64,000 bases of DNA from Escherichia phage Mt1B1_P17. The notes under the pieces were generated by a model. That model ran no database searches, was not told the DNA's origin, and saw only the letters and a program-made list of their open reading frames with translations. Position numbers and translations under genes: made by a program. Shown here piece after piece: positions 5,954 to 44,344 of the stretch (the first letter of the stretch is position 1; every line of letters begins with the position of its first letter). The stretch lies in the sequence record NC_052662.1; one strand, given 5' to 3'.

Positions 5954-6115
5954 CTATTTGTTAGCCGGATTATATGCCAGGACCGCGCCACTTGCTTTCA
6001 CGCTTTCCGCTTCATAGTTGCGCAGATCGTTTTCTGTAAGATTGAGCGCGATCACTTCCTCGATCTCAACGCCAGCGGCAAGGGCGATCTCTTTGATAAT
6101 ATCTGTTGTTTTCAT
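5954..6115 (-). CDS. hypothetical small protein, about 53 aa
   Basis: Internal Met (MKTTDIIKEI) with RBS AAGGTG. Confidence 0.4.
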   Translation of the reverse strand: MKTTDIIKEIALAAGVEIEEVIALNLTENDLRNYEAESVKASGAVLAYNPANK

Positions 6116-6127
6116 GGTGTGCACCTT

Positions 6128-6247
6128 ATAAGATGATTGATAAGATAGTGACAACGAAAGCGATTATACTGATGGCAAATGTCATCTTTTTACCTTCGGA
6201 TACTGCCGGATTCTCTACCGTGTATTCTACTGTGTACTTGCTCATCG
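6128..6247 (-). CDS. small membrane protein, about 39 aa (C-terminal hydrophobic helix)
   Basis: ATG at 6247 with RBS; TTGCAA-N18-TATTTA promoter and 5' hairpin upstream. Confidence 0.4.
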
Positions 6248-6343
6248 TGTAATCCTCTCGTTTGCTTTGGGAACTATTCCCGCCGCCCTATGAATTAAAT
6301 ATACACTATCTCAAAATGATTGCAAGCCTTTTTCTAAATTATT

Positions 6344-6628
6344 TTATGCAGTAAACAAACCATCATTTACAACGGCGGCGATGATCTCCCGTGCCATTGA
6401 TTCAGGGAAAGGGGCGCTATAGTCCTGGCTTGTCTCATCGGTATCGGTGATCCAATGATAAGCTAACGAGTAAAAGCCTTTACTAACTGTTTTCAGTGAG
6501 ATGATGATCACTCGGTCAAGCTTATTGGTGAATGTTGCCGTTAATGTGTTACCCTCCTGCGTCATGTTGGACAAGTAAGCGAGATCATTAATCAGGGAAA
6601 ACATTAGCACGGTGTTAGCTTTACTCAT
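6344..6628 (-). CDS. hypothetical early protein, about 94 aa
   Basis: Start moved to internal Met (MSKANTV) after the hairpin; RBS GAGGATG. Confidence 0.5.
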   Translation of the reverse strand: MSKANTVLMFSLINDLAYLSNMTQEGNTLTATFTNKLDRVIIISLKTVSKGFYSLAYHWITDTDETSQDYSAPFPESMAREIIAAVVNDGLFTA

Positions 6629-6699
6629 GATTGCATCCTCAAAGGGGCGCGGCACCATTGCCGCCCTACACGATAACTATAACACAATGTAAAACAGGA

Positions 6700-6906
6700 T
6701 CAACCTTTATTTTTCCACGGTGTCAGCTTGTTAATCATTGGTGATAAATAGCGTTTACCAACGTAAAACAGTACGCCAACTGATGCAACGGCGGCGACCT
6801 CATGCAAGGAGGAAGGACGCGCGGTGTCATAGTAGGTACCAATAATAGCAATAGCGGCTACTGCGGCAATGTCTGTAATAATTTTTTCTTGTTTTGTTGT
6901 GATCAT
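6700..6906 (-). CDS. small membrane protein (68 aa)
   Basis: Hydrophobic stretches; RBS; 5' hairpin GGCGGGGAATAGTTCCCCACC upstream. Confidence 0.45.
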   Translation of the reverse strand: MITTKQEKIITDIAAVAAIAIIGTYYDTARPSSLHEVAAVASVGVLFYVGKRYLSPMINKLTPWKNKG

Positions 6907-6991
6907 AATATTTACCTTTTTGTATGGTGGGGAACTATTCCCCGCCTGATGTAATACAGTTTAACAGGTCCGGTTATGGTGTCAACCACTT

Positions 6992-7177
6992 TTAAAGATA
7001 TTTTATGCTAATGACGTTTTCAGGTTTTACCTTGTTATGATGTGCATCAACATAGATCAAACCATCGTCAGAAAAGCCCAGGATCACACCCTGCGCGATA
7101 AAACCATACGCATCACGGTAACGCACGGCTATTTTTAATGTTGCGTTATAGGCTGTTTTAAGCTCGCTTAAAGTCAT
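6992..7177 (-). CDS. hypothetical early protein (61 aa)
   Basis: ORF; RBS GAGGATAAACA. Confidence 0.45.
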   Translation of the reverse strand: MTLSELKTAYNATLKIAVRYRDAYGFIAQGVILGFSDDGLIYVDAHHNKVKPENVISIKYL

Positions 7178-33034: not shown

Positions 33035-33640
33035 ATGCAACATAGTGTAGTAGTCAACATGCCGAATAGTGGGGATAAATCTTTTGGTGTCCCTGCTAAA
33101 AAAGTGTGGAAAGCCCATTTTCATCTTACTTTATCTAACGTTAGTTCTGAAGAGTTGATGAAAGCAGCTAAGATTATTGGTGCCAAATGCACAACAATTG
33201 ATTTACATCGGGATACAAAGTCTCAACGTGATCGTATGTTAACAAAGTATCAAAGCGATCTCGACACTACTTTAATGTTGCAGTGTGTAGAAAAACTTGA
33301 GAATGCAGGTTTCAATGTTGTTCGTTACAAACTGGAACGAATGTTTAAACATGTTGCCTGTGTTCTTTTCATGGATCTAAGTAAAGAAAATTACGGAGAA
33401 GTTCACATTAAGACTTCAGCAAGTGATCCCGAAGTAGAAACAAACTTCTTCCGTATTTCTTCTAATGCTGAAGAAATTGATTACCGATTTTATAATGCTC
33501 GCTTATATTCCGCAGAAGATAAGTTGCGTTTCAATGAAGCGTATGATATGCTCTTGAACAGTGGGATACAGATAAAAGGCTACCACATAGAACAAGTGGT
33601 AGTGGACAGTAATCTTAACTTAGACGCATGGTGGGCTTAA
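33035..33640 (+). CDS. hypothetical protein (201 aa)
   Basis: ORF; RBS GAGGAG. Confidence 0.5.
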   Translation: MQHSVVVNMPNSGDKSFGVPAKKVWKAHFHLTLSNVSSEELMKAAKIIGAKCTTIDLHRDTKSQRDRMLTKYQSDLDTTLMLQCVEKLENAGFNVVRYKLERMFKHVACVLFMDLSKENYGEVHIKTSASDPEVETNFFRISSNAEEIDYRFYNARLYSAEDKLRFNEAYDMLLNSGIQIKGYHIEQVVVDSNLNLDAWWA

Positions 33641-33641
33641 T

Positions 33642-34298
33642 ATGACTATTAAACATATCTCTTTTGATGTATGGAACACACTGATCACAGCAAACTCCAA
33701 TTACGCAGACATGCGAGCCTGGACTATCGCAAAATATGGAGATATTACGGAAGTGGAAGCAAGAGCAGCTTATAAAAAGATCAAAAAGGAACTGGATAAT
33801 GCAGCACTTCAAGGCAAAGCCGAGTGTGCAGCATACGCCTGGGAAAGACTTGGTTCTGAACTTGGGATAACGCCTTGGAAGTCTGCAAAGCTTCGTTTCG
33901 AGTGTGAACAGTGGTTCCTTAAGTTTCCACCACACGTAGCCGTGGATCTGCCGATGTACTTGCTGTATCTTTCAGGGCGTTATGATTTGAGTATTAAGAG
34001 CAATACCAACTTCATATCAGGGGATATCCTGCGTCGTGCTTGTAAGTTTGATAGTTGGAATTGTTTTGAGTTCACCCATTTCTCGGATGAAGCTTTACTT
34101 TGTAAACCAGATCCGCGATTCTTTGCTCGCACGCTCACGTATTCTCCGATCCCTCTGTTAGGGCACGAAGTGTTGCACGTAGGCGATAGTGAAGAATATG
34201 ATGGAAAATGTGTTGACTTAGGATTTAACTTCTGTCATATTAAGAACCCTAACGACTTACTAGAGAAACTTAAAAGAGGAGAAATTGTAAATGCGTAA
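33642..34298 (+). CDS. HAD-superfamily hydrolase/phosphatase-like protein
   Basis: HAD motifs I FDVWNTL, II IKSNTN, III KPDPRFF, IV VGDSEEYD in correct order. Confidence 0.55.
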   Translation: MTIKHISFDVWNTLITANSNYADMRAWTIAKYGDITEVEARAAYKKIKKELDNAALQGKAECAAYAWERLGSELGITPWKSAKLRFECEQWFLKFPPHVAVDLPMYLLYLSGRYDLSIKSNTNFISGDILRRACKFDSWNCFEFTHFSDEALLCKPDPRFFARTLTYSPIPLLGHEVLHVGDSEEYDGKCVDLGFNFCHIKNPNDLLEKLKRGEIVNA

Positions 34299-35118
34299 TC
34301 AAACTCAAATTTTTGCAAATAAATTTGATGACCTGGAAACTGCTACTTTTGATATCCAAGATTATTCAAAATTAAAATTTGGTAGTAACCAAGCTGCGCG
34401 TCGTATGGGTAAAGAATTAGCACTTCAGTTTTTTGCTCAAGTGGCAATGAAACATATTGGGGAACAATTTGTTATCATTCCTTCTCCTTATAACCATGTG
34501 CATAATGCTGCAACAATGATGACAGATCATTTTATTAATTATTTTAATATGTTGCAATCACAATATGATCAAGGTCGTTCAGCAGAACTGGACATTATTC
34601 ATCGTAAAGTTAGCTATATCAACGATTATGGTTTCTTGGATAAAGCTAGTCGTAAGAAACTTATTGATGGGGATACATTCTACTGCAACAAAGAATTCTG
34701 GGGTGATAAGAAGCTTGTATTCATTGATGATGTAAATATCACTGGAACGCATGAAGACAAACTGATTGAGATCCTTGATGAAAATCAAGTTAAAAATGAT
34801 GTTTACTTCTTGTATTTTGCAAAATACGAAGGTAATCAAGCAGATACCGAAGCTAAACTGAATTTTAACTACATTAATACACCAGAAGCGTTTGTTAAAA
34901 TGATTAATGAAGAACGTGATGCACAGTGTCTTGTTCGTCCTATTAAGTATCTTATGGGCCAAAATCATGAAGACTTCAAAATCATTCTTAGCCAATTGCC
35001 ACATTACTATGTAGAGCAACTTTTCTTTGGATGTTTGGGAGAAGGTTACAACCGAATTTCAAAGTATGCTGAAAACTTTGAATTCTTGGATCGTTACACA
35101 AAACAACACATTCTGTAA
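34291..35118 (+). CDS. phosphoribosyltransferase (type I PRTase) domain protein
   Basis: PRPP-binding motif KLVFIDDVNITGTHED. Confidence 0.5.
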   Translation: MRNQTQIFANKFDDLETATFDIQDYSKLKFGSNQAARRMGKELALQFFAQVAMKHIGEQFVIIPSPYNHVHNAATMMTDHFINYFNMLQSQYDQGRSAELDIIHRKVSYINDYGFLDKASRKKLIDGDTFYCNKEFWGDKKLVFIDDVNITGTHEDKLIEILDENQVKNDVYFLYFAKYEGNQADTEAKLNFNYINTPEAFVKMINEERDAQCLVRPIKYLMGQNHEDFKIILSQLPHYYVEQLFFGCLGEGYNRISKYAENFEFLDRYTKQHIL

Positions 35119-35132
35119 TAAGGAGCTAAAAA

Positions 35133-35606
35133 ATGCTTAAAATGAAAAGAGGTAATCTTATTGATGCCGCTAAAGCAGGTGAAGTAACTGTTATTGCTCA
35201 TTGTTGCAACTGTATGTGTAATATGGGGGCAGGTATTGCCCCACAAATCAAACAAGCATTTCCTTACGCATATGCAGCAGACTTAGACACAATGGCTGGT
35301 GATCAAAGTAAACTAGGTTGTTTTAGTTTAGGGGTGCCAGACGAACAATCAGACCCTTTGGTATATAATCTATACGGGCAATACCGTTACGGATACAATG
35401 CTAAAGGTCGTCAGTTGGACTATGATGCACTTTACGATGCACTAATAGCTATGGCTAACGATTTGCTTCTCCGTGACCAAAAATGTAAGATCGGCTTACC
35501 TATGATTGGCGCTGGATATGCTGGAGGTAATTGGGCTATCATCCAAGTGATGATTGAAGAAACTTTAGTAAAAACAGGTCACGATGTGACTATTTATAAA
35601 CTTTAA
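35133..35606 (+). CDS. macro domain (ADP-ribose-binding/hydrolase-like) protein
   Basis: N-terminal VIAHCCN...GAGIA and C-terminal GLPMIGAGYAGG resemble macro-domain glycine-rich motifs. Confidence 0.55.
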   Translation: MLKMKRGNLIDAAKAGEVTVIAHCCNCMCNMGAGIAPQIKQAFPYAYAADLDTMAGDQSKLGCFSLGVPDEQSDPLVYNLYGQYRYGYNAKGRQLDYDALYDALIAMANDLLLRDQKCKIGLPMIGAGYAGGNWAIIQVMIEETLVKTGHDVTIYKL

Positions 35607-35618
35607 GAGGAGATTAGT

Positions 35619-35840
35619 ATGGGTGTTTTTGCAGGTATTGTTGCAGTGGTAAGCTTTTTTGTTATTGCTTTTATGCTTAGTTTGATTCCAGCTTGGTTAC
35701 TGTTGCTGGCTTACAACTATGTTGCTGAAGTTATGGGTCATGCAGATATCACTGTCCCAGTAACCTTCTGGACCGTGGTTTGTGTTTCGTTTATTCTGGC
35801 TGTATTACGAGGAATCTTTTCCTCTCATTCAACAAAATAA
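35619..35840 (+). CDS. small membrane protein (two hydrophobic helices)
   Basis: ORF; RBS AGAGGAG. Confidence 0.45.
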   Translation: MGVFAGIVAVVSFFVIAFMLSLIPAWLLLLAYNYVAEVMGHADITVPVTFWTVVCVSFILAVLRGIFSSHSTK

Positions 35841-35843
35841 GTG

Positions 35844-35902
35844 TTGACATAGTTCTTAAAAAGAGTAAGATATATCACATGAAGCGGGGAATAGTTCCCC
35901 GC
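35844..35902 (+). promoter_or_regulatory. early-type promoter cassette on plus strand: TTGACA-N16-TAAGAT plus 5' stem-loop GCGGGGAATAGTTCCCCGC
   Basis: -35 at 35844..35849, -10 at 35866..35871, hairpin 35884..35902; same architecture as the minus-strand early cassettes. Confidence 0.6.
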
Positions 35903-35919
35903 AAAGAGAGGAGAAAAGA

Positions 35920-36894
35920 ATGCAACTTGGTTTCCCAATTATTGATGTAGTTGTTTTAGTTGGTATTTTAGCATTGTCTATTGGTATTGATTTCTTTGGT
36001 CACAAAGAAAATAAAGAAATTTCATTCAAATCCGCAGTTGGTTGGTCGATCTTTTGGATTGGTGTATCATTAGCTTATTATGGTTTTGTATACTTCCAAC
36101 ATGGTGCCGATTTTGCTAACTTGTTTTTAAGTGGATATGTGTTGGAAAAATCTTTGTCGGTAGATAACTTAGTAGTATTTGTAGCAGTATTCGCAAGTTT
36201 TGGTATTAAAAGCACACACTTGCAGCACAAGATTCTACTTTGGGGTATTGCAGGTGCGATTGTCTTCCGAGGTGTGTTTGTAGCAGTAGGCACTTACTTG
36301 TTAAGTTTGGGCTGGTATGTTAATATCTTCTTCGGTGCGGTCATCCTTTTCTGTGCAGCTAAAATGGTATTTGCTGGAGATAATGACGCAGAAGTTGATT
36401 ACTCTAAACACTGGGCTACCCGTATTGTTCGTAAACTGTTCCCTGTATCTAATAAAATGGATGGGGAGAAGTTCTTCACAATCGAAAATGGTGTTCGTGT
36501 AGCAACTCCAGCTTTGGTTTGCGTATTCGTGATGGAAATGGTTGATGTAATCTTTGCAGTAGATTCTGTTCCGGCAGTGATCGCAGTAACACAAGAACCT
36601 CTGCTTGTATTCTCTTCGATGTTATGTGCAATCTTAGGTCTACGTGCTCTGTTCTTTGTTCTTAGTGTTGCACTGAAGTATCTGGTTCACTTGGAGAAAG
36701 CAGTTATTGTGGTTCTGGTGTTTGTAGGTGTTAAACTGATGTATCACCCGTTTGCAGAAACGTTACATGAAAAAATGAGCTTCCTGCCAGCGCACATTGA
36801 TCCAACTATTAGTATGTATATTGTCCTGGGCACATTAGCTCTTGGTGTTATTGCAAGCTTTATCTTCCCTGAAAAAGAAGAAGCTACTGTTTAA
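35920..36894 (+). CDS. terC: TerC-family integral membrane protein
   Basis: Multiple hydrophobic helices and the TerC-type motif LEKSLSVDNLVVF. Confidence 0.6.
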   Translation: MQLGFPIIDVVVLVGILALSIGIDFFGHKENKEISFKSAVGWSIFWIGVSLAYYGFVYFQHGADFANLFLSGYVLEKSLSVDNLVVFVAVFASFGIKSTHLQHKILLWGIAGAIVFRGVFVAVGTYLLSLGWYVNIFFGAVILFCAAKMVFAGDNDAEVDYSKHWATRIVRKLFPVSNKMDGEKFFTIENGVRVATPALVCVFVMEMVDVIFAVDSVPAVIAVTQEPLLVFSSMLCAILGLRALFFVLSVALKYLVHLEKAVIVVLVFVGVKLMYHPFAETLHEKMSFLPAHIDPTISMYIVLGTLALGVIASFIFPEKEEATV

Positions 36895-36900
36895 TAAATG

Positions 36901-36925
36901 AGCCTCCTTCGGGAGGCTATTTTAT
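36901..36925 (+). terminator. intrinsic terminator AGCCTCC-TTCG-GGAGGCT plus T-rich tail
   Basis: Perfect 7-bp stem followed by ATTTTAT. Confidence 0.55.
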
Positions 36926-36936
36926 AGGAGAGACTT

Positions 36937-37287
36937 ATGAGTAATTTTGATGAAATTCAAGAACTTGTTTGGGATTTATCTGGTGATGTGGATTACATTT
37001 CAGATTATCTTTCAAAAGTTTACCCTGGGGTAAGCGTTATGATTGTGACCAAAGATCCAATTAATTTGCCTCCTAATGTTGTAGCTTGTTGTGGAAGTGG
37101 TTCAGGAGAAGTAGAGCCTGTATCTCGTTGGGAATTAACTAAAGCTGTTTCAAAACGAAGCGGTGAAGTTTTGAATATTGATATTGAGCAAATATGGACT
37201 TCTCCAGCAGCCAAATGGAATGATCCAAATGGTTGGGATTTGTTCTTCTGGGATAATGAGACTGATGATGAGGTGTTTTTAAAATGA
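36937..37287 (+). CDS. hypothetical acidic protein (116 aa)
   Basis: ORF; RBS AGGAGAG. Confidence 0.5.
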   Translation: MSNFDEIQELVWDLSGDVDYISDYLSKVYPGVSVMIVTKDPINLPPNVVACCGSGSGEVEPVSRWELTKAVSKRSGEVLNIDIEQIWTSPAAKWNDPNGWDLFFWDNETDDEVFLK

Positions 37288-37529
37288 AATACTTGTTGGT
37301 TGTGTTTGAAAATATCTGTTTTGCAATAGGGTTGTTTGTTGTAATTTTTGTATTGACAAGCGTAATCAACGGCAGTAAAGTGAGTTTATACCGAGATGGA
37401 GAGCAACTTTATTGCTTCTCTGGAGATTTCAAACACAGATGTATTAATAGCCAAAACGAGGAAAGCAAATATGAAAAAACTAGCCCTGATTTTAATTGGT
37501 TGTATCTTTTTAACAGCTTGCGAGGATGA
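37284..37529 (+). CDS. possible small membrane protein (81 aa; N-terminal hydrophobic helix)
   Basis: ATGA overlap with upstream stop; 3' end overlaps the lipoprotein gene by 59 nt, so uncertain. Confidence 0.3.
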   Translation: MKYLLVVFENICFAIGLFVVIFVLTSVINGSKVSLYRDGEQLYCFSGDFKHRCINSQNEESKYEKTSPDFNWLYLFNSLRG

Positions 37530-37908
37530 AACAAATCCTGCACAATACCAACAACCTCCTCAACAATACGCTCAACAAGGATCTGACGGAGATACAACTA
37601 TTATCAACAATGGTGGCGGTTCTAGTAGTAGCGGTGTTGGTGAGTTTGCTACAGGTATGTTGTTAGGGCATATGATGAGTGGCGGTAGTAATCGTAGCAG
37701 TGGGGATTATAACGATAACAGAACGATTATTAATAAGCATTATAATACACCTAAACCGAAAACTAATTTTTATGGTAAGCCTAAACAAGAGATAAAAACT
37801 TATGAAAAGCCGAGACAAACTTTTAAAACAAATAGTAGCTATACAACTCGTAAATCTTACAATAGCCCTTTAAGTAAAAAGAGTTCATCTCGTAGCAAGC
37901 GACGTTAA
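37471..37908 (+). CDS. lipoprotein (lipobox LTAC), Q/G/S/N-rich low-complexity body
   Basis: MKKLALILIGCIFLTAC signal and lipobox; RBS AGGAAAG; track ORF starts further upstream at 37396. Confidence 0.5.
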   Translation: MKKLALILIGCIFLTACEDETNPAQYQQPPQQYAQQGSDGDTTIINNGGGSSSSGVGEFATGMLLGHMMSGGSNRSSGDYNDNRTIINKHYNTPKPKTNFYGKPKQEIKTYEKPRQTFKTNSSYTTRKSYNSPLSKKSSSRSKRR

Positions 37909-37922
37909 TAAGGAGAAAAACA

Positions 37923-38516
37923 ATGACAATTTCTATTCGTACTTCCATTACAGGTGTTAAAAGTTTGCCTAATGCTTTGCAAATCACACGTGCTTTGAGG
38001 GATACGTTCTCTGCTGTGGATGAGCATAAGATGCTCGATAATCTCTCAAATTGGCCCTATTTCCATTATTTTAAAAATGAAGACGACGAGTTTATAGACG
38101 CTGTTTCTTACGGTTATGATTTCGGTAAGGAGGTTTCCCCTGAAGAATTTGTAGCTACGGTGTTCCCAAACGGTTTGCCTACTCGCAGTAAACGTAAAAA
38201 AGGACCAAAAAACAAGAAACGTGCTACTAATAAAGCTACCATTTTCTTTACTGATGGCACACAATATACGATTAAAGATTTTGAAGAGGTATCTTATACA
38301 GCAGGTGGGAGTCTTTCTTTCTACACCATCAAAAAACAAAACTATACGTTCAGCCATGTTTCTAACATGATTGAAATGTTAGTAGAAGATATTGAAAGCG
38401 TGGCTGTGTTAGGTATGCATAAAAGCTTTTTAATTACAAATATTTCAGATTTCAGTGCAAGTTTATCTGGCCCTGATTTTGAAGCCACGACCACGCATTT
38501 CGCTTTTAAGGTGTAA
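37923..38516 (+). CDS. hypothetical protein (197 aa)
   Basis: ORF; RBS AAGGAGAAAAA. Confidence 0.5.
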   Translation: MTISIRTSITGVKSLPNALQITRALRDTFSAVDEHKMLDNLSNWPYFHYFKNEDDEFIDAVSYGYDFGKEVSPEEFVATVFPNGLPTRSKRKKGPKNKKRATNKATIFFTDGTQYTIKDFEEVSYTAGGSLSFYTIKKQNYTFSHVSNMIEMLVEDIESVAVLGMHKSFLITNISDFSASLSGPDFEATTTHFAFKV

Positions 38517-38519
38517 GTT

Positions 38520-39110
38520 ATGCATACCGAGAGAGACTTGCAACTCTTGTGGTGGGAAGTGATGCAGGAAATAAAAGAAGATTTTCCTGTTTACTACAAC
38601 ATGTTACGTGAAGCAGGATATAAAGCTTGTGTTAGAAACAAAGTGAATAACTCTTTCGGTTGGTGCAACTACCGAGATAAAATTGTTGTTGTAAATTGGC
38701 ACTTGCATAAGAACTCCACAAGAGATATGATCGTGGATACAATGAAGCACGAAATTGCTCATGCTATTGATGGTTGTATGGGTAAGTTTAGTAGACACGG
38801 TGCTCATTGGCAAAAACTGGCAGCAGAGTTAGGGGCTAATCCTAAAGCCACTTCCAAAGAGCCGTTGAACCACGAATATAAATATGTTCTTGTTCTGGTA
38901 GATAGGTTTGCGACAAGATGTGTTAGAGGTTATAATCGTAAACCTAATCGCATGTACCCAGGTAAGCAACCTAATATGTGGTTGAAATCAGATAAAGAAG
39001 GGACCGAAGGAAAATTATGGTTGTATAAATGGGACGATTGGGTTAAAGTAGCTAAAGAGTACGGTGTTTCACCATATATAAGAGATGCAGAAGAGGAGAA
39101 TGAAGAATGA
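38520..39110 (+). CDS. putative zinc metallopeptidase (HExxH; SprT-like)
   Basis: MKHEIAHAIDG motif with downstream His. Confidence 0.45.
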   Translation: MHTERDLQLLWWEVMQEIKEDFPVYYNMLREAGYKACVRNKVNNSFGWCNYRDKIVVVNWHLHKNSTRDMIVDTMKHEIAHAIDGCMGKFSRHGAHWQKLAAELGANPKATSKEPLNHEYKYVLVLVDRFATRCVRGYNRKPNRMYPGKQPNMWLKSDKEGTEGKLWLYKWDDWVKVAKEYGVSPYIRDAEEENEE

Positions 39111-40219
39111 CAAGTCCATTTTTAAAAGCAGCTACTGGCGGTCAGAAGAAGCCTGAAATGAGCGTATTTGCTGCAACAACAGATGCAAGTAAATCTGTAT
39201 TCGCTCCAAGCGTGTTAGATGCCAGTCCTGTTTATGCACCAGCGGCACCGCAAGAAGTTCCAGTTTTGCCTTCTATGACCCGACAAGAGATCGAAGAGAT
39301 TGGGGCAGAGGCAGGAACAACCTTGCGTTCCTTGAATGCCGAGGTGTTAAAACATCAACGTAGTAATCAAGGCGATCAGATGAGTGAACGACTCACAGCT
39401 TTGATTAAACAGGCAAAACAACTTGATCCAAACTCTATTAAACAAAGCAAAGGTATTACTAAACTCATTAAAAAAGTTATGGGTATGAAAGAAGACCTGT
39501 TCGGGGAGTTTGATAATGTTAATAACCGTATTGAAGAGTTGGTAAAGAACCTTCAAATGGATATTCGCAAAGAAGAAGATTCCTTGGTATATCTTGAAAA
39601 GCTACATCAAGCTATTGGACAATATGCTGCAAGTTTGAACCGAGATATGCAGCTTCTAACAGCAACCTATGAAAAAGAAGAACAAGCTTTGGCTGCTCTT
39701 CCAGAAGATGCAGTAGAACAGCGACAAGTGATCCGAGATACTTTGGATCTCTTGGAGATTCGTATTGCAGATTTAAAAGCATTGCGCCTACTGTGTGTCC
39801 AAATGGGACCGCGTGTACAAGGTATGCAAAAAGTTTCTGCAAGCTTAATGCGATCTGCGCGTAACATAGTAAATAATGTTATTCCTGCTTACTCTGCTAA
39901 CTTCTCAATGTATATCGAGAGCTTACGTCAAATGAAAGCAGCAGAGACGCAGAATAACGTTCTTGATGAATTTAACCTGGCAATTAAACTGGGTAGCGAT
40001 CTTGCCACACAGAATCAGATCGAAGCAGCAGCACTGGCTAACCGTCAAGTGTTGGATATTGAAACTCTGCGTCACGATCAGGAAAACTTGGTTAAGATGT
40101 TGGAAGAAACTAACCGCATCAATACGGAAGCCCGTGCTGCTCGTGTTGATTATATTAATGAAGTTCAATCTCTGGAAGACGGGATGGTAGCTGCTGTGAA
40201 ACGAGGGCTTGGTAAATGA
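39107..40219 (+). CDS. long alpha-helical/coiled-coil protein; possibly TelA-like (unverified)
   Basis: 370 aa, helical heptad-like composition; TelA suggested only by size and Ter-gene context. Confidence 0.4.
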   Translation: MTSPFLKAATGGQKKPEMSVFAATTDASKSVFAPSVLDASPVYAPAAPQEVPVLPSMTRQEIEEIGAEAGTTLRSLNAEVLKHQRSNQGDQMSERLTALIKQAKQLDPNSIKQSKGITKLIKKVMGMKEDLFGEFDNVNNRIEELVKNLQMDIRKEEDSLVYLEKLHQAIGQYAASLNRDMQLLTATYEKEEQALAALPEDAVEQRQVIRDTLDLLEIRIADLKALRLLCVQMGPRVQGMQKVSASLMRSARNIVNNVIPAYSANFSMYIESLRQMKAAETQNNVLDEFNLAIKLGSDLATQNQIEAAALANRQVLDIETLRHDQENLVKMLEETNRINTEARAARVDYINEVQSLEDGMVAAVKRGLGK

Positions 40220-40416
40220 GAATCCGTATCTATATAATTGATGAGGACATTGGTGTCCGTTATGATGACGAAAAACGATTCGCGCCGATGGGAGGTATAT
40301 ATCCCCCAAGTGTTCTAGCAGTTTGTCGTGATTGTTATATTTATGAAGGTTGTCGTAACTTCCGTAAATTCGAACTCCTTGCAGATATTGACTTCAATGA
40401 GGAGGAGGAGGAGTAA
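40216..40416 (+). CDS. hypothetical small protein (66 aa)
   Basis: ATGA overlap with upstream gene. Confidence 0.4.
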   Translation: MRIRIYIIDEDIGVRYDDEKRFAPMGGIYPPSVLAVCRDCYIYEGCRNFRKFELLADIDFNEEEEE

Positions 40417-40590
40417 TGAAAATACTACGAGTGAATATTGAAACTGCTTGGTGTGGATGCAATGAGGTTGTGGATATCGAAATTGAAGATGATATGTCTC
40501 AAGAGGATATAGAAGATCTTGCACACGAAACCTTTCAGGATTATTGTAATTACGGGTTCCATATTTTAGAGGAGGAAGAAGATGTATAAT
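40417..40590 (+). CDS. small acidic protein, 57 aa (below track cut-off)
   Basis: ATG directly after upstream stop; RBS GGAGGAGG. Confidence 0.3.
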
Positions 40591-40980
40591 CCAACAGGTA
40601 TTCTTTTAAAACTTACAGTAACAGACCCTACTCTTTTCACTAAGTTAGCAAGTGGTGAAGTTTATGAAGTAATGAAAGATGGTGACGGTTGGTGTTATCT
40701 TTGTGGCTACTTCCTCTGTGATGCAGAAGAGTTAGAGTCCATTGTAACTAAAGGTTTTTATGAAGAACCAGGGTTCCGTGTGGAAACTACGCAGAAACCT
40801 GATACCATTACGCTGACTCGACAGGAACTGATCACAATCATTGAAGATGCTTTTATTGATGGCTGGAATACACAAGATAATGACTGGGGTGGACCCGAAG
40901 CTTTTCTGGAACATCATAAAGCTTATGGAGAATTTTGTGAAACCACTGTAGCTCTTGATAATCTGAAGGAGGGTTTGTAA
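40582..40980 (+). CDS. hypothetical protein (132 aa)
   Basis: ORF; RBS GAGGAGGAAG. Confidence 0.45.
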   Translation: MYNPTGILLKLTVTDPTLFTKLASGEVYEVMKDGDGWCYLCGYFLCDAEELESIVTKGFYEEPGFRVETTQKPDTITLTRQELITIIEDAFIDGWNTQDNDWGGPEAFLEHHKAYGEFCETTVALDNLKEGL

Positions 40981-41543
40981 TGGGTTGTTTTAGCTTTTTG
41001 TGCAAAGAATCGGGCAAAGCTGCCCTTTCTACTTCTTTCGACGGATCACCTTGCTACCTCTTTCTTTTGAAGGACGGTGTTGTTATTGAAGAGATGTATG
41101 GCAACTATGATAGTTATGGTTGTGTTTTCTCTGGAAAGGAGGATGAAAATGGTGTTCGTGAACGATTTGAATGGGCTATGGATTGGAGTAAGGTTTGTGA
41201 TTTGATGCATTCCTCAAATCCAAGGGACGGTATCGCTATGGTGCTGGAAGAGTACTTTACAGGTGAAATCCCTACAGAACAATCTGACGGAGATCCTAAC
41301 CAAGGTTGGGGTGATGGTGAAGAAGATCCAGATTGTTTTTTCAGCACAGAAAAGAATAAGTTTAAACGTGTTGACAACCCTTATCACAAAGTGCATAATA
41401 CTCTCATTGAAACAAAAGATGACAAGATGGAAATTGAAGAAGATGATCCTCTTGTAACACTTCCTATAAGTGAGTTACAAAAGATCACTAAGGAAGCTTA
41501 CGATTTGGGCTTCAAAATTGGTAGAGGAGGTATGCGTGTTTAG
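40980..41543 (+). CDS. hypothetical acidic protein (187 aa)
   Basis: ORF; RBS GGAGGG. Confidence 0.45.
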   Translation: MGCFSFLCKESGKAALSTSFDGSPCYLFLLKDGVVIEEMYGNYDSYGCVFSGKEDENGVRERFEWAMDWSKVCDLMHSSNPRDGIAMVLEEYFTGEIPTEQSDGDPNQGWGDGEEDPDCFFSTEKNKFKRVDNPYHKVHNTLIETKDDKMEIEEDDPLVTLPISELQKITKEAYDLGFKIGRGGMRV

Positions 41544-41814
41544 ATTCAATATTCAAGAAGAAAAAAGTCAGGATTTACCTATTGCTTTCGAAGATCTTGA
41601 CGTAGGGGCCACATTCATGTATTATGATGCCTATGAAGACGCAGGGTTGGATACCTACCGTAACTTGGTGTTCATTAAAAATTCCACAAACAGTGCGATT
41701 TGTATTAATGGATCACTAGCACAACGAGGCTATACTCATTGCATCCCACCAGATACAAATATGGTGGAAGTAGATTTAGAAGTTACCAATATTACACTTA
41801 AGAAGGAGAAATAA
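41536..41814 (+). CDS. small partner protein, paralogue 1 (GTG start)
   Basis: VFRFNIQEE...EDLDVGATFMYYDAYEDAGLD aligns with CDS 42836..43105; RBS GAGGAGG. Confidence 0.4.
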   Translation: MFRFNIQEEKSQDLPIAFEDLDVGATFMYYDAYEDAGLDTYRNLVFIKNSTNSAICINGSLAQRGYTHCIPPDTNMVEVDLEVTNITLKKEK

Positions 41815-41815
41815 T

Positions 41816-42610
41816 ATGTCCGAGAAAATCAGCCTGAAAAAACGTCAAGAAAACCTTGCTTTCTCTCTGAAAAAGAATAAGAACCTGAATGAAGGTAAGA
41901 TTGTTCTTCGTGTAGCATGTGCTCTAGATATTTCTGGTAGTATGCATGGTCTATATTCTAGTGGGGTAGTGAGTGATTTTGTAGGTAAACTGCTTCCTTT
42001 TGGTATGCTGTTCGACGATAATCAACAAATTGATATGTGGGCCTTCAATACGAGTTCCCAAGAGCTTACTCCAGCAACAGCAGACGTTTACGATGACTAT
42101 GTTGGTAAATGTATGCGTAATGTTCGTATCGGAGGTGGAACAAATTACGCCCCTGTAATGGCAGATATCTACGATGAGTATTTTGGCACTGTTACCAAAT
42201 ATATTACCACTAAACAAGTGGTACAAGAGGAGGCTCCAAAGAAAGGCTTCTTTAATCGTCTGCTTGGTAAAACTGAAACAGTGTCTGTAGAGCGTGAAAA
42301 AGTTGTAGCTGTATCTGAACCAGGTGCTGACGTTACCCCTGGTGTTGTATTCTTCCAGACGGATGGTGAGAATGGTGATCCTAGTGCTGTTCGTCGTCTT
42401 ATTGAAGAGAATAAGAATAAACCTATTTATTGGTTCATGGTTGGCGTTGGTAATGAGAAGTTTGGGTTCCTGAAAGAACTGGCAAATGCTTATGATAATG
42501 TTGGTTTTATTGGCATTAAAGATTTAGACTTGACAGATTCAGAGCTTTATGACAAACTCTTATCTGAAGAGTTCGGAGAGTGGGTTGTTAAAGTAGGTGC
42601 TAAAAAATGA
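41816..42610 (+). CDS. vWA-domain protein (TerY-like) with TerD-like N-terminal leader
   Basis: MIDAS motif ALDISGSM; N-terminal SEKISLKK repeats the TerD N-terminus of CDS 43121..43723. Confidence 0.55.
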   Translation: MSEKISLKKRQENLAFSLKKNKNLNEGKIVLRVACALDISGSMHGLYSSGVVSDFVGKLLPFGMLFDDNQQIDMWAFNTSSQELTPATADVYDDYVGKCMRNVRIGGGTNYAPVMADIYDEYFGTVTKYITTKQVVQEEAPKKGFFNRLLGKTETVSVEREKVVAVSEPGADVTPGVVFFQTDGENGDPSAVRRLIEENKNKPIYWFMVGVGNEKFGFLKELANAYDNVGFIGIKDLDLTDSELYDKLLSEEFGEWVVKVGAKK

Positions 42611-42855
42611 TCGACGAGCTTGCCTCTCAAGTCATAGAAAATTATTGGCGCGAGAGAGAAGCTTTCATTATGCGCAGTCTCAAAGAGTATTTCATTGGGA
42701 CTGTGCGAATGGAAGATATTGTAAGTAGAGTGGAGATTCATGTATGGCCCGATTATGAAGAATGGGTTGACAAAGAAAATGAAAATGCTATAATTCTTCG
42801 TATATACAAACCGGAGATAACATTAGGAGGAAGAAGTGTTAAACTTCGAAATTGA
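42607..42855 (+). CDS. hypothetical protein (82 aa)
   Basis: ORF with overlapping start/stop. Confidence 0.4.
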   Translation: MIDELASQVIENYWREREAFIMRSLKEYFIGTVRMEDIVSRVEIHVWPDYEEWVDKENENAIILRIYKPEITLGGRSVKLRN

Positions 42856-43105
42856 TGAGCAAAAAGTAAATAAACGATGCCTTACCATTAAAGATTTGGA
42901 TGTAGGAGATACTTTCGTCTATGAAAATGCATTTGACGAAAATGGTTTAGACCTTAGTGAAATCATTGTTTATTTAAAAGTAGATGATGGGGAAAATGAT
43001 TATTCTGCTGTAGAACTAAACCATCATGCACAATTAGTATCAATCCAAAACACATCTAAGCTTTTGGAAGTAGAATTGACTGTAACTGGTATTACACTTA
43101 AATAA
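42836..43105 (+). CDS. small partner protein, paralogue 2 (GTG start)
   Basis: VLNFEIDEQ...KDLDVGDTFVYENAFDENGLD; paralogue of 41536..41814. Confidence 0.4.
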   Translation: MLNFEIDEQKVNKRCLTIKDLDVGDTFVYENAFDENGLDLSEIIVYLKVDDGENDYSAVELNHHAQLVSIQNTSKLLEVELTVTGITLK

Positions 43106-43120
43106 TAGAGGAGACAAAAG

Positions 43121-43723
43121 ATGACTGATAAAATTTCCCTGAAAAAAGGCTCTAGCGAAAAAATTTCCCTGAAGAAAGTTGCTCCGGCTCTGAAAGAACT
43201 GCGCCTGGAATTCTCTTGGAAATCTGATTCTAAACTGGATCTGGATGTAAGTGCACTGGTTTGTCGTCACAATGCCGCTGGTAATCCTGAAATGCTGTCT
43301 GCACGTCATCTGGTTTGCTATGCTAACAAGTTTGATCCTGAACGTTCTACCTTCGCTGGTGACGATGTTCGTGATGGAACTGGCAGCATGGAGCAGATTG
43401 ATATTACTCTGGCTAAAATCTCTCCTGATGCACAAGAGATTGCCTTTGTTCTGACCATTGATGATGATACAGGTCTGAAACGTTTTGGTCATGCTTCTGA
43501 AGGTATGCTTAAAATCTTCGACTCCGAGCGCAATGTGGAAATTCTGGATTTTGACTTCCTGGCTCCTGAAGTAGCTGGCAACACAATCTGCCACGTGGCT
43601 TCCTTGGTTCGTGAAGATGGGGAATGGAAGCTGAAAGCATATGGTGTAGGTAAAGCTGGTCTGGATATTTGTGATGTGGTGATGGCCTTCGGTGGTAAAA
43701 AAGAATGGTATGAATGTCCATAA
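43121..43723 (+). CDS. terD: TerD-family protein
   Basis: N-terminal KISLKKGSSEKISLKK repeat, LDLDVSAL, acidic D-rich loops and GEWKLKAYG, matching the TerD pattern from memory. Confidence 0.75.
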   Translation: MTDKISLKKGSSEKISLKKVAPALKELRLEFSWKSDSKLDLDVSALVCRHNAAGNPEMLSARHLVCYANKFDPERSTFAGDDVRDGTGSMEQIDITLAKISPDAQEIAFVLTIDDDTGLKRFGHASEGMLKIFDSERNVEILDFDFLAPEVAGNTICHVASLVREDGEWKLKAYGVGKAGLDICDVVMAFGGKKEWYECP

Positions 43724-43741
43724 TAATTAACAAATGATTTT

Positions 43742-43766
43742 GAGGGGGAGAAATCCCCCTCTTGCA
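43742..43766 (+). terminator. terminator hairpin GAGGGGG-AGAAAT-CCCCCTC
   Basis: Perfect 7-bp GC stem after the terD stop; weak T-tract. Confidence 0.5.
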
Positions 43767-43822: not shown

Positions 43823-44344
43823 TTGCTGATAAAAAACTTTGTAACAGTTGCGTTACTATCCTTAACTGCTTTTACATTTACACCTGTTGTGGCGAAAGCC
43901 GAAGCTGCAAACGTAAAAACCGCTAAAGTAGTTCACAAATGTACAAAGCAATATAATGATAAAATTCTATTAGCTTGTGCAATTTACGCAGAAGGTCGTG
44001 GTCTGGGTAAAAAAGGAATGAATGCCGTTGGGAATGTGGTAATCAACAGAAGAAATGATACCTACTTCCCTAACACAGTCAGAGGAGTCTTGTTCCAGAA
44101 AGGACAATTCTCATATGCGAAAACTTTTAACGTAACAGAGAAAGATAAGTGGCAGGAAGCAAAAGCAATAGCGGAGCGTTTACTTTATTTAGAGAAACAT
44201 TTTCCTGAATTGCGGTCTGTTTTAGATGTTACTAAAGGTGCTCTATACTTCAAGAAACGGAATATAAGGACACACTGGGAACGTGATATGCGTCTTGTTT
44301 ATCGAGATAAAGTGCATGGTTTCTATCTACCAAAGGGGAGTTAA
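43823..44344 (+). CDS. secreted cell-wall hydrolase, SleB-like domain
   Basis: Signal peptide; motifs AIYAEGRG, GMNAVGNVVINR, FPNTVRGVLFQKGQFS; TTG start with RBS AAGGAGG. Confidence 0.55.
   Translation: MLIKNFVTVALLSLTAFTFTPVVAKAEAANVKTAKVVHKCTKQYNDKILLACAIYAEGRGLGKKGMNAVGNVVINRRNDTYFPNTVRGVLFQKGQFSYAKTFNVTEKDKWQEAKAIAERLLYLEKHFPELRSVLDVTKGALYFKKRNIRTHWERDMRLVYRDKVHGFYLPKGS

Follow-up and report, generated by a model that had tools for sequence, protein, structure and literature searches.

Positions 35844 to 43766 of the DNA analysed here, a 64,000 nucleotide (nt) window from Escherichia phage Mt1B1_P17 (NC_052662.1; one strand, 5′ to 3′), carry genes for TerC, TelA, vWA and TerD proteins which we take, with a probability of about 95%, to be a phage-encoded Ter system. 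The initial annotation, made from the letters and open reading frames only, had recognised TerC, vWA and TerD in a phage-borne Ter complex, and these family calls are now backed by profile searches against Pfam and NCBIfam; the observation holds and lies far outside what chance would give. The cluster had been treated as new, whereas such genes are already annotated in GenBank and described in papers, and it is therefore a known kind of system, phage-borne Ter systems being present in both databases and literature. The novelty is modest, and consists of corrected boundaries, a separate and slowly diverging TerC cassette, a degenerate TerD loop and a family of SH3-like proteins linked to vWA and TerD. 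As to function, we tentatively favour, at somewhat less than an even chance, a remodelling of the host envelope and its ion fluxes that would exclude rival phages and pore-formers, a reading that agrees with the hypothesis published for phage Ter systems (PMC7824862).

Core Ter proteins of the block

35920..36894, + strand: TerC/Alx-family integral membrane protein (Pfam PF03741, E 9.9e-39, 133 bits against a cut-off of 27.8)
39107..40219, + strand: TelA-family protein (Pfam PF05816, E 3.2e-33, 115.7 bits against a cut-off of 30, profile positions 13-327 of 332)
41816..42610, + strand: vWA-TerF-like protein (Pfam PF10138, E 1.6e-37, 130 bits against a cut-off of 29.4)
43121..43723, + strand: TerD-domain protein (Pfam PF02342, E 3.2e-28, 98.9 bits against a cut-off of 25.3)

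TerC additionally passes the NCBIfam model TIGR03718 (TerC/Alx metal homeostasis membrane protein) with 319 bits against a cut-off of 246, possesses the paired acidic motifs LEKSLSVDN and EMVDVIFAVDSVPA, and is 48% identical to TerC of the plasmid ter operon. The coiled-coil protein that had been named as possibly TelA-like is indeed TelA, with 79% identity to gp178 of phage phi92 and 22-27% identity to the TelA proteins of distant phage Ter blocks. The metal ion-dependent adhesion site (MIDAS) reported for the vWA protein is complete, residues D38, S40, S42, T109 and D183 being invariant in eight phage homologues, and vWA-TerF proteins occur in 218 of 50,697 phage records. No sequence relatives of TerC, TelA or vWA were found in the PDB; TerD aligns end to end with the solved TerD structures of Klebsiella and Streptomyces (2KXT, E 1.5e-15; 3IBZ).

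The calcium loop of TerD is degenerate, reading GDDVRDGTGSMEQ here as compared to GDNRTGEGDGDDE in Klebsiella TerD. Equal replacements are present in the TerD of phi92; in L006 and L009, two metagenomic phage contigs, the TerD proteins have the canonical loop intact, and the N-terminal DxDxS element is kept in the window. The calcium loop defines the metal-binding TerD paralogues and not the TerD family itself. Among the open reading frames scanned from 33035 to 43723, with an 81-aa transmembrane (TM) gene lying outside the scan, no gene for TerZ, TerA or TerE and no second TerD-domain gene was found, and no Ter model of PADLOC matched the Ter proteins of the window. By the genes recognised, the ter set here is to be read as an abbreviated one.

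Relatives, synteny and selection

At the DNA level, 35844-43766 shares 99.7% identity with Escherichia phages ESCO37 and REC and 95.6% with phAPEC8, the type phage of Phapecoctavirus, a genus of the subfamily Stephanstirmvirinae; identity to Phapecoctavirus records, which include phAPEC8, ESCO13 and SKA64, runs from 95 to 99.7%, and in 60 phage records at least 80% of the region is covered by one single match. On these identities the window is assigned to Phapecoctavirus, as DNA of a lytic E. coli phage of the phAPEC8 group. Several Phapecoctavirus records already bear the names TerC, TelA-like/toxic anion resistance, TerD family, vWA-TerF-like and SprT-like, and further upstream REG-2-like HAD hydrolase, phosphoribosyltransferase family protein and Macro phosphatase, with comparable annotations in the record of phi92 (genus Justusliebigvirus). 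Five records labelled 'Campylobacter phage' with C. jejuni as host (for example MG065650.1, MG065656.1, MG065639.1 and MG065645.1) are essentially Phapecoctavirus or Justusliebigvirus coliphage genomes, one of the small SH3-like proteins, as an example, being 98.9% identical there; probably the host was mislabelled, or else these phages are contaminants.

The module is kept across Stephanstirmvirinae and recurs with shuffled gene order in unrelated phage lineages. The comparison of gene order with related phages that had been proposed as a check was carried out, and synteny with phi92 spans HAD through TerD. The ratio of nonsynonymous to synonymous substitution rates (dN/dS) against phi92 lies at 0.06-0.26 in the eight genes that allowed its calculation (HAD, TerC, TelA, the 187-aa gene, small paralogue A, vWA, TerD and the flanking endolysin), dS of PRTase_3 being not estimable. 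Every gene with a computable ratio is under purifying selection, and purifying selection on the gene set implies that the set is used by the phage.

The TerC cassette and a possible role in metal homeostasis

35844..35871, + strand: sigma-70-like promoter before TerC (TTGACA-16-TAAGAT; a promoter is annotated at the equivalent site in ASO2A)
35884..35902, + strand: hairpin in the 5′ untranslated region of TerC (8 bp stem, -14.6 kcal/mol, z -3.9)
36901..36918, + strand: terminator-like hairpin closing TerC (AGCCTCC-TTCG-GGAGGCT followed by ATTTTAT; annotated as terminator in ASO2A)
43742..43761, + strand: GC-rich hairpin after TerD (GAGGGGGA-GAAA-TCCCCCTC, weak T tract; annotated as terminator in ASO2A)

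The promoter cassette that had been placed at 35844..35902 is borne out, the promoter-like element being followed by a stable hairpin; phi92 has TTGACT-16-TATAGT at the equivalent site and retains the pairing of the 5′ hairpin via two compensatory double substitutions. The hairpin at 36901-36918 starts seven nt past the TerC stop codon, is followed by a T run and is kept in phi92. With its promoter, 5′ hairpin and adjoining terminator, TerC therefore looks like a self-contained cassette. The initial annotation had described the block as one rightward unit, a reading that finds only partial support: the genes from 36937 to 43723 are tightly packed, with overlaps or gaps of 15 nt at most, but TerC ends in its own terminator-like hairpin, and 35844-43766 is probably not a single transcription unit. 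Both genera have additional sigma-70-like sites in matching positions, ahead of the lipoprotein gene (37353 in the window), of small paralogue A-vWA (41371) and of TerD; the site before small A-vWA is identical in both (TTGACA-17-CATAAT), and a site at 42767-42794 (+), situated within the 82-aa gene and 42 nt upstream of small paralogue B and TerD, matches the consensus at 12 of 12 positions (TTGACA-16-TATAAT) with an extended -10 (TG), phi92 having a promoter-like site within its vWA-TerD gap. The terminator claimed at 43742 stands in part: the hairpin and the ASO2A annotation speak for it, while its T tract is weak and our own scan did not call it. Directly behind the Ter block, and after this hairpin, a gene for a SleB-like cell-wall hydrolase (endolysin; 43823-44344, +, TTG start) has its own promoter-like site, TTGCAA-17-TATACT with TG.

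From promoter through terminator (35856-36918) the cassette forms a single segment of 88% DNA identity to phi92 (6081-7148 of its locus, L002), which ends at the 36901-36918 hairpin and is flanked by DNA of 69-79% identity. The TerC protein is 95% identical to that of phi92 as compared to 49-81% for its neighbours, its dS is 0.47 against 1.0-2.0 for neighbours where estimable, and at a dN/dS of 0.06 it is the most constrained gene of the block. Either the two genera have exchanged the cassette more recently than its surroundings, or it is under unusual constraint. A search for its origin on E. coli chromosomes found none, and the genes are not a recent capture from that species.

The main rival to an exclusion function is a role in metal homeostasis centred on TerC, which would export Mn2+/Zn2+ (or Ca2+) or serve as a metalation factor, with regulation by TerD, vWA and TelA, cytoplasmic or periplasmic metal levels being tuned for phage enzymes or exported phage proteins with no exclusion of other phages; we consider this rather unlikely. 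TerC passes the TerC/Alx metal homeostasis model, as do the Mn exporters/metalation factors Alx of E. coli and MeeF/MeeY of B. subtilis; Mn export and the metalation of secreted enzymes are described for TerC homologues (PMC10550928), Klebsiella lacking terC is less resistant to phage, Zn and Mn (PMC12054061), and both the strong constraint on the phage gene (dN/dS 0.06; 95% amino acid identity between genera) and its own promoter and terminator would fit such a role. Unlike Alx and MeeF/MeeY, however, phage TerC is linked to TelA, vWA and TerD and is preceded by a short hairpin only: the search of the window against Rfam gave zero family matches, so that the 5′ hairpin is no known riboswitch, and neither the yybP-ykoY (Mn) riboswitch leader nor another metal-sensing leader was found there, the leader of TerC being only ~45 nt long with one hairpin. 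Metal homeostasis would furthermore leave the conserved linkage to PRTase_3/HAD, TelA and vWA unexplained, the calcium loop of TerD is degenerate, and no phage metalloenzyme depending on such a supply was identified.

Upstream HAD, PRTase_3 and Macro genes

33642..34298, + strand: HAD-superfamily hydrolase, REG-2-like IA (Pfam Hydrolase E 4e-4, below cut-off; NCBIfam DREG-2 2.4e-8)
34291..35118, + strand: PRTase_3, a ComF-like phosphoribosyltransferase (Pfam PF15610, E 2.2e-41; intact phosphoribosyl pyrophosphate (PRPP) loop DDVNITGTH)
35133..35606, + strand: Macro-domain protein, Poa1p/DarG-macro-like (Pfam Macro E 1.3e-4, 22.3 bits against a cut-off of 22)
35619..35840, + strand: small membrane protein, 73 aa (phrog_16065; hydrophobic, 60% identical to a phi92 homologue at the equivalent position)

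The Ter system reaches upstream past 35844, where the block had been made to start; these boundaries were too narrow on that side and left out HAD-PRTase_3(-Macro), genes that go together with the system. HAD adjoins PRTase_3 in every locus examined. Residues D9, W11, N12, T13, S120, K155, D182 and D187 of HAD are invariant across phage and Rhizobium homologues, and its motif I is a variant, DxWNT, with an invariant Trp at the place of the usual second catalytic Asp; in PRTase_3 the motif DDVxITGTH is invariant among homologues. PRTase_3 homologues of 47-49% identity lie, together with a HAD partner, within the Ter blocks of distant phage-like metagenomic contigs in three arrangements, including TelA-vWA-x-x-TerC-x-HAD-PRTase_3-TerD in L004 and L009 and TerC-x-x-TerD-x-vWA-HAD-PRTase_3 in L006. 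The presence of the pair inside Ter blocks in varied orders is strong evidence for a functional linkage. PRTase_3 occurs in 155 of the 50,697 phage records, in host groups that are largely those with vWA-TerF.

The Macro protein matches the DarG model of PADLOC (5.6e-10) and the NCBIfam model of the DarG N-terminal region (1e-8, well under the cut-off of that model). Its homologues include gp185 of phi92 and gp024 of phiPsa374, the latter 42% identical and encoded ~2.6 kb from TelA, and a Macro ('Appr-1-p processing') gene abuts the Ter block of Acinetobacter phage ME3. The gene is likely an accessory of the nucleotide module, and its product could be a counter-defence enzyme that removes ADP-ribose.

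It is conceivable, if in our judgement unlikely, that HAD, PRTase_3 and Macro form an independent counter-defence or salvage module for nucleotides or ADP-ribose that merely lies beside the Ter genes, for example reversing host ADP-ribosylation or processing NAD-derived signals. The resemblance of the Macro protein to the DarG macro domain would fit such a module, as would the solitary HAD-PRTase_3 pair on Rhizobium plasmids, the distance of the pair from the vWA gene in CcrColossus and Rhizobium phages, and the position of the TerC promoter, which lies between the two gene groups. Against this separation, the pair is embedded among Ter genes in three orders in distant phages, almost all phage host groups that carry PRTase_3 also carry vWA-TerF, and the published model places PRTase and HAD in the Ter system (PMC7824862).

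On Rhizobium and Sinorhizobium plasmids (L018 8370-9840; L019 8346-9819) HAD and PRTase_3 form an overlapping pair with 37-40% identity and no annotated Ter genes nearby, flanked on the Sinorhizobium plasmid, the sole one for which gaps were inspected, by transposase-like fragments; these contexts suggest a mobile cassette made up of the two genes. The Ter blocks of the metagenomic contigs (L004 1-3200; L009 1-5100; L006 10862-12268) adjoin RNA-repair-type genes, for an RNA ligase, a TROVE/Ro60-like protein with a vWA domain, a CYTH protein and a PNKP-like kinase/phosphatase. Upstream of HAD, at 33035-33640 (+), a 201-aa protein is matched over nearly its full length by two 'AbiEi' models of PADLOC (E 4.7e-13 and 4.4e-12) and contains two H-x-T/S motifs (HFHLT, HIKTS) reminiscent of 2H phosphoesterases; searches of Pfam, NCBIfam and the PDB gave no match. 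Besides Phapecoctavirus, some Klebsiella phages encode it, as do 110 Rheinheimera phage records (Ter content there not checked), whereas phi92 is without it at the equivalent position; the gene was rejected as a part of the Ter system.

Small SH3-like paralogues beside vWA and TerD

41536..41814, + strand: small SH3-like beta-barrel protein, copy A (phrog_11278, GTG start), directly before vWA
42836..43105, + strand: small SH3-like beta-barrel protein, copy B (phrog_11278, GTG start), directly before TerD

Copies A and B share 34% identity (BLASTP, E 2e-14) and one PHROG and are, judging from these matches, true paralogues, as had been proposed. A structure prediction for copy A with a 7-sequence alignment was unusable (pLDDT 47) and became usable once distant homologues joined the alignment, and the fold of the small proteins is predicted to be an SH3-like beta-barrel. 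When 1.84 billion representative proteins were searched exhaustively with a profile of the family, 18 short homologues came up, of which 15 are full-length (87-93 aa); matches to giant Ig-repeat, DUF11 and ankyrin proteins were judged to be spurious sums over multiple repeats. The family was found only in the present phage lineage and in related phage-like metagenomic contigs, and all homologues with readable context adjoin vWA or TerD, in the order vWA-small-TerD in L012, L013 and L014, small-vWA-TerD in phi92 and the window's own arrangement in L015. Two copies are present in Phapecoctavirus and in the phiWec179/188 phages, and one in Justusliebigvirus.

The initial annotation had further proposed that a unit of small gene plus partner was duplicated, pointing to a KISLKK leader shared by vWA and TerD. 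The sequences do not support a duplicated unit: vWA and TerD belong to different families with unrelated folds, and in relatives a single small gene stands before vWA or else between it and TerD. The leader itself is present on both proteins as described; in the vWA-TerF-like phage proteins sampled, L7, K9 and K20 of the N-terminal ISLKK...SLKK motif are invariant throughout, including proteins just 34-38% identical, and the normal N-terminus of TerD is of the same type (VSLSKG..VSLSK in 2KXT). The small gene alone was duplicated, and the leader is a family-wide trait of vWA-TerF-like and TerD proteins. It is a distinctly doubtful idea that the two small proteins might be dedicated adaptors, each binding the N-terminal ISLKK...SLKK beta-hairpin of the product of the next gene downstream (A with vWA, B with TerD), which would build a sub-membrane complex with TelA and TerC, gated by a nucleoside-like product of HAD-PRTase_3(-Macro) and excluding rival phages.

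Other genes of the block

36937..37287, + strand: 116-aa protein without family match (phrog_27498; no homologue in the phi92 block)
37284..37529, + strand: small protein with N-terminal TM segment, 81 aa (49% identical to its homologue gp181 of phi92; overlaps the lipoprotein gene)
37471..37908, + strand: lipoprotein, 145 aa (lipobox LTAC, signal peptide MKKLALILIGCIFLTA|C; start as in SKA64)
37923..38516, + strand: 197-aa protein, partly related to phi92 gp179
38520..39110, + strand: SprT-like HExxH metalloprotease-fold protein (Pfam SprT-like E 4.2e-9, above cut-off)
40216..41543, + strand: four tightly packed genes (66, 57, 132 and 187 aa), the 187-aa and 132-aa proteins conserved in phi92
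42607..42855, + strand: 82-aa protein (phrog_22387; homologue in L015), holding the sigma-70 consensus site 42767-42794

The HExxH metallopeptidase-like protein that had been noted is thus SprT-like, and was rejected as a core Ter part, no counterpart being present in phi92 or in the other Ter blocks examined; on this distribution the gene is taken to be lineage-specific and non-core. The SprT-like, 116-aa, 82-aa and 201-aa genes are not conserved together with the Ter system; phi92 is without all four, and has one small SH3-like gene as compared to two here. The 57-aa protein has a weak match to DUF7167 (7.5e-5, below cut-off). The lipoprotein had been correctly reported; its true start lies at 37471, and the homologous gp180 of phi92 (L002 7358-7948) also has a lipobox, LVGC. 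At position +2 the present lipoprotein has Glu and gp180 has Asp, and membrane sorting may differ accordingly. Its Gly-rich hydrophobic core, GVGEFATGMLLGHM, is conserved with gp180; the Gly-rich hydrophobic segment SSGVGEFATGMLLGHM is flanked by low-complexity Q/N/S-rich regions, and the C-terminus is very basic.

The overlap of the small TM gene (37284-37529) with the lipoprotein gene (37471-37908) recalls spanins, and a SleB-type endolysin gene lies directly behind TerD here and in L014 and one gene further along in phi92, which raises the idea of a lysis module whose membrane proteins would time lysis with the endolysin. This is highly improbable: the lipoprotein pair lies ~6 kb from the endolysin with no adjacent holin gene, the TM protein is only 81 aa long with no sign in its sequence of a long periplasmic domain, and the lipoprotein, long in its mature form (145-aa precursor), of low complexity and with a Gly-rich hydrophobic core, is unlike typical o-spanins. 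We know of no lysis role for the TerC, TelA, vWA and TerD families.

Comparison with described Ter systems

Ter blocks in phages have been described as 'relatively complete' in Acinetobacter phage ME3 and as 'abbreviated' in Caulobacter jumbo phages (Iyer et al. 2021, PMC7824862), and terC/terD/terF/telA clusters are reported in phiKp34 and phiPsa374, their function in these phages not being established. All of these have the core of TerC, TerD, TerF-type vWA and TelA in common with the window, although vWA, TerD and TelA are only 22-26% identical between the window and this group. ME3 resembles the window further in its PRTase and HAD 'signal synthesis' genes and the adjacent Macro gene, but has two larger PRTases flanking HAD where the window has a single ComF-like PRTase_3. 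The present genome is of ~150 kb and so is not that of a jumbo phage; in gut jumbo phages TerD genes are highly transcribed. The bacterial terZABCDEF/telA loci (IncHI2 R478-type plasmids, Klebsiella/EHEC islands), which in the passages of PMC9796965 and PMC12054061 that cite work on them give tellurite, colicin and phage resistance, have these protein families in common with the window. They differ from it in that the block scanned here is without TerB, TerZ, TerA and TerE, has one TerD-domain gene with a degenerate calcium loop, and encodes as a standalone protein the vWA domain that is fused in bacterial TerF.

That the genes would be a host-benefit 'moron', conferring tellurite or xenobiotic resistance on carrier or pseudolysogenic cells and serving no lytic growth, has been suggested as an extra possibility for jumbo phages (PMC7824862) and would suit a self-contained TerC cassette, but is most improbable for virulent myophages in which no lysogeny genes were noticed in the region examined, whose whole multi-gene set is under purifying selection in a lytic genome, and whose ter set is incomplete (TerB, TerZ, TerA and TerE not found among the open reading frames scanned).

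Proposed mode of action

The published Ter model comprises signal synthesis by PRTase/HAD, sensing by TerB/TerD, a membrane response by TerC and sub-membrane structures of TelA and TerF-vWA, and phage copies are proposed to compete with superinfecting phages (PMC7824862). For exclusion by envelope and ion remodelling in the present phages, host RNA polymerase would transcribe the genes from the sigma-70-like promoters, TerC as a separate promoter-to-terminator cassette. The PRTase and HAD enzymes would make a nucleoside-like small molecule from PRPP, with Macro possibly aiding its processing. TerD, with its degenerate calcium loop, and vWA would be soluble binders dependent on a ligand or metal and would dock beneath the membrane with TelA and TerC, possibly aided by the two SH3-like small proteins, and the resulting complex would shift inner-membrane ion flux and envelope properties. 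The infected cell might thereby resist pore-formers and the DNA injection of competitors (superinfection exclusion), and stay energised until lysis. In favour of this account are the family assignments, the synteny with phi92 and the purifying selection, the linkage of HAD-PRTase_3 to Ter genes, the Macro genes beside or near the Ter blocks of ME3 and phiPsa374, the promoter-like sites kept in position between two genera, and the lowered phage resistance of Klebsiella after terC deletion (PMC12054061).

Several points weigh against this account. The sole TerD departs from the canonical loop GDN(R/L)TGxGDGDDE and has lost most of its acidic residues, three acidic positions being replaced by T, S and M, and TerB, the proposed small-molecule sensor, was not found in the scan from 33035 to 43723, which covered the open reading frames other than the 81-aa TM gene. 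The Trp at the second Asp of motif I leaves the phosphatase chemistry of HAD not assured, and HAD-PRTase_3, alone on Rhizobium plasmids and far from Ter genes in some phages, may therefore act independently. The promoter calls are consensus matches only, in a total number near that of shuffled sequence. No experiments on any phage Ter gene were found in the literature, and one group calls the function during infection unknown (PMC9796965).

Ter systems are widespread and tied to phage, colicin, metal and tellurite resistance as well as to virulence (PMC7824862, PMC12054061). The cluster described here adds no new kind of system, but places a compact Ter set in lytic coliphages, with TerC, TelA, vWA, a single TerD, HAD-PRTase_3 and Macro as its members. 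Several such phages were isolated on E. coli K-12 MG1655, and deletion and expression work in phages of this kind would be easy. The corrected boundaries, the separate TerC cassette and the SH3-like family linked to vWA and TerD show which genes belong together for deletion. If the small proteins do act as adaptors, the block would constitute a compact and genetically tractable Ter machine in a lytic phage that infects K-12, and may offer a first route to the mechanism of Ter systems.

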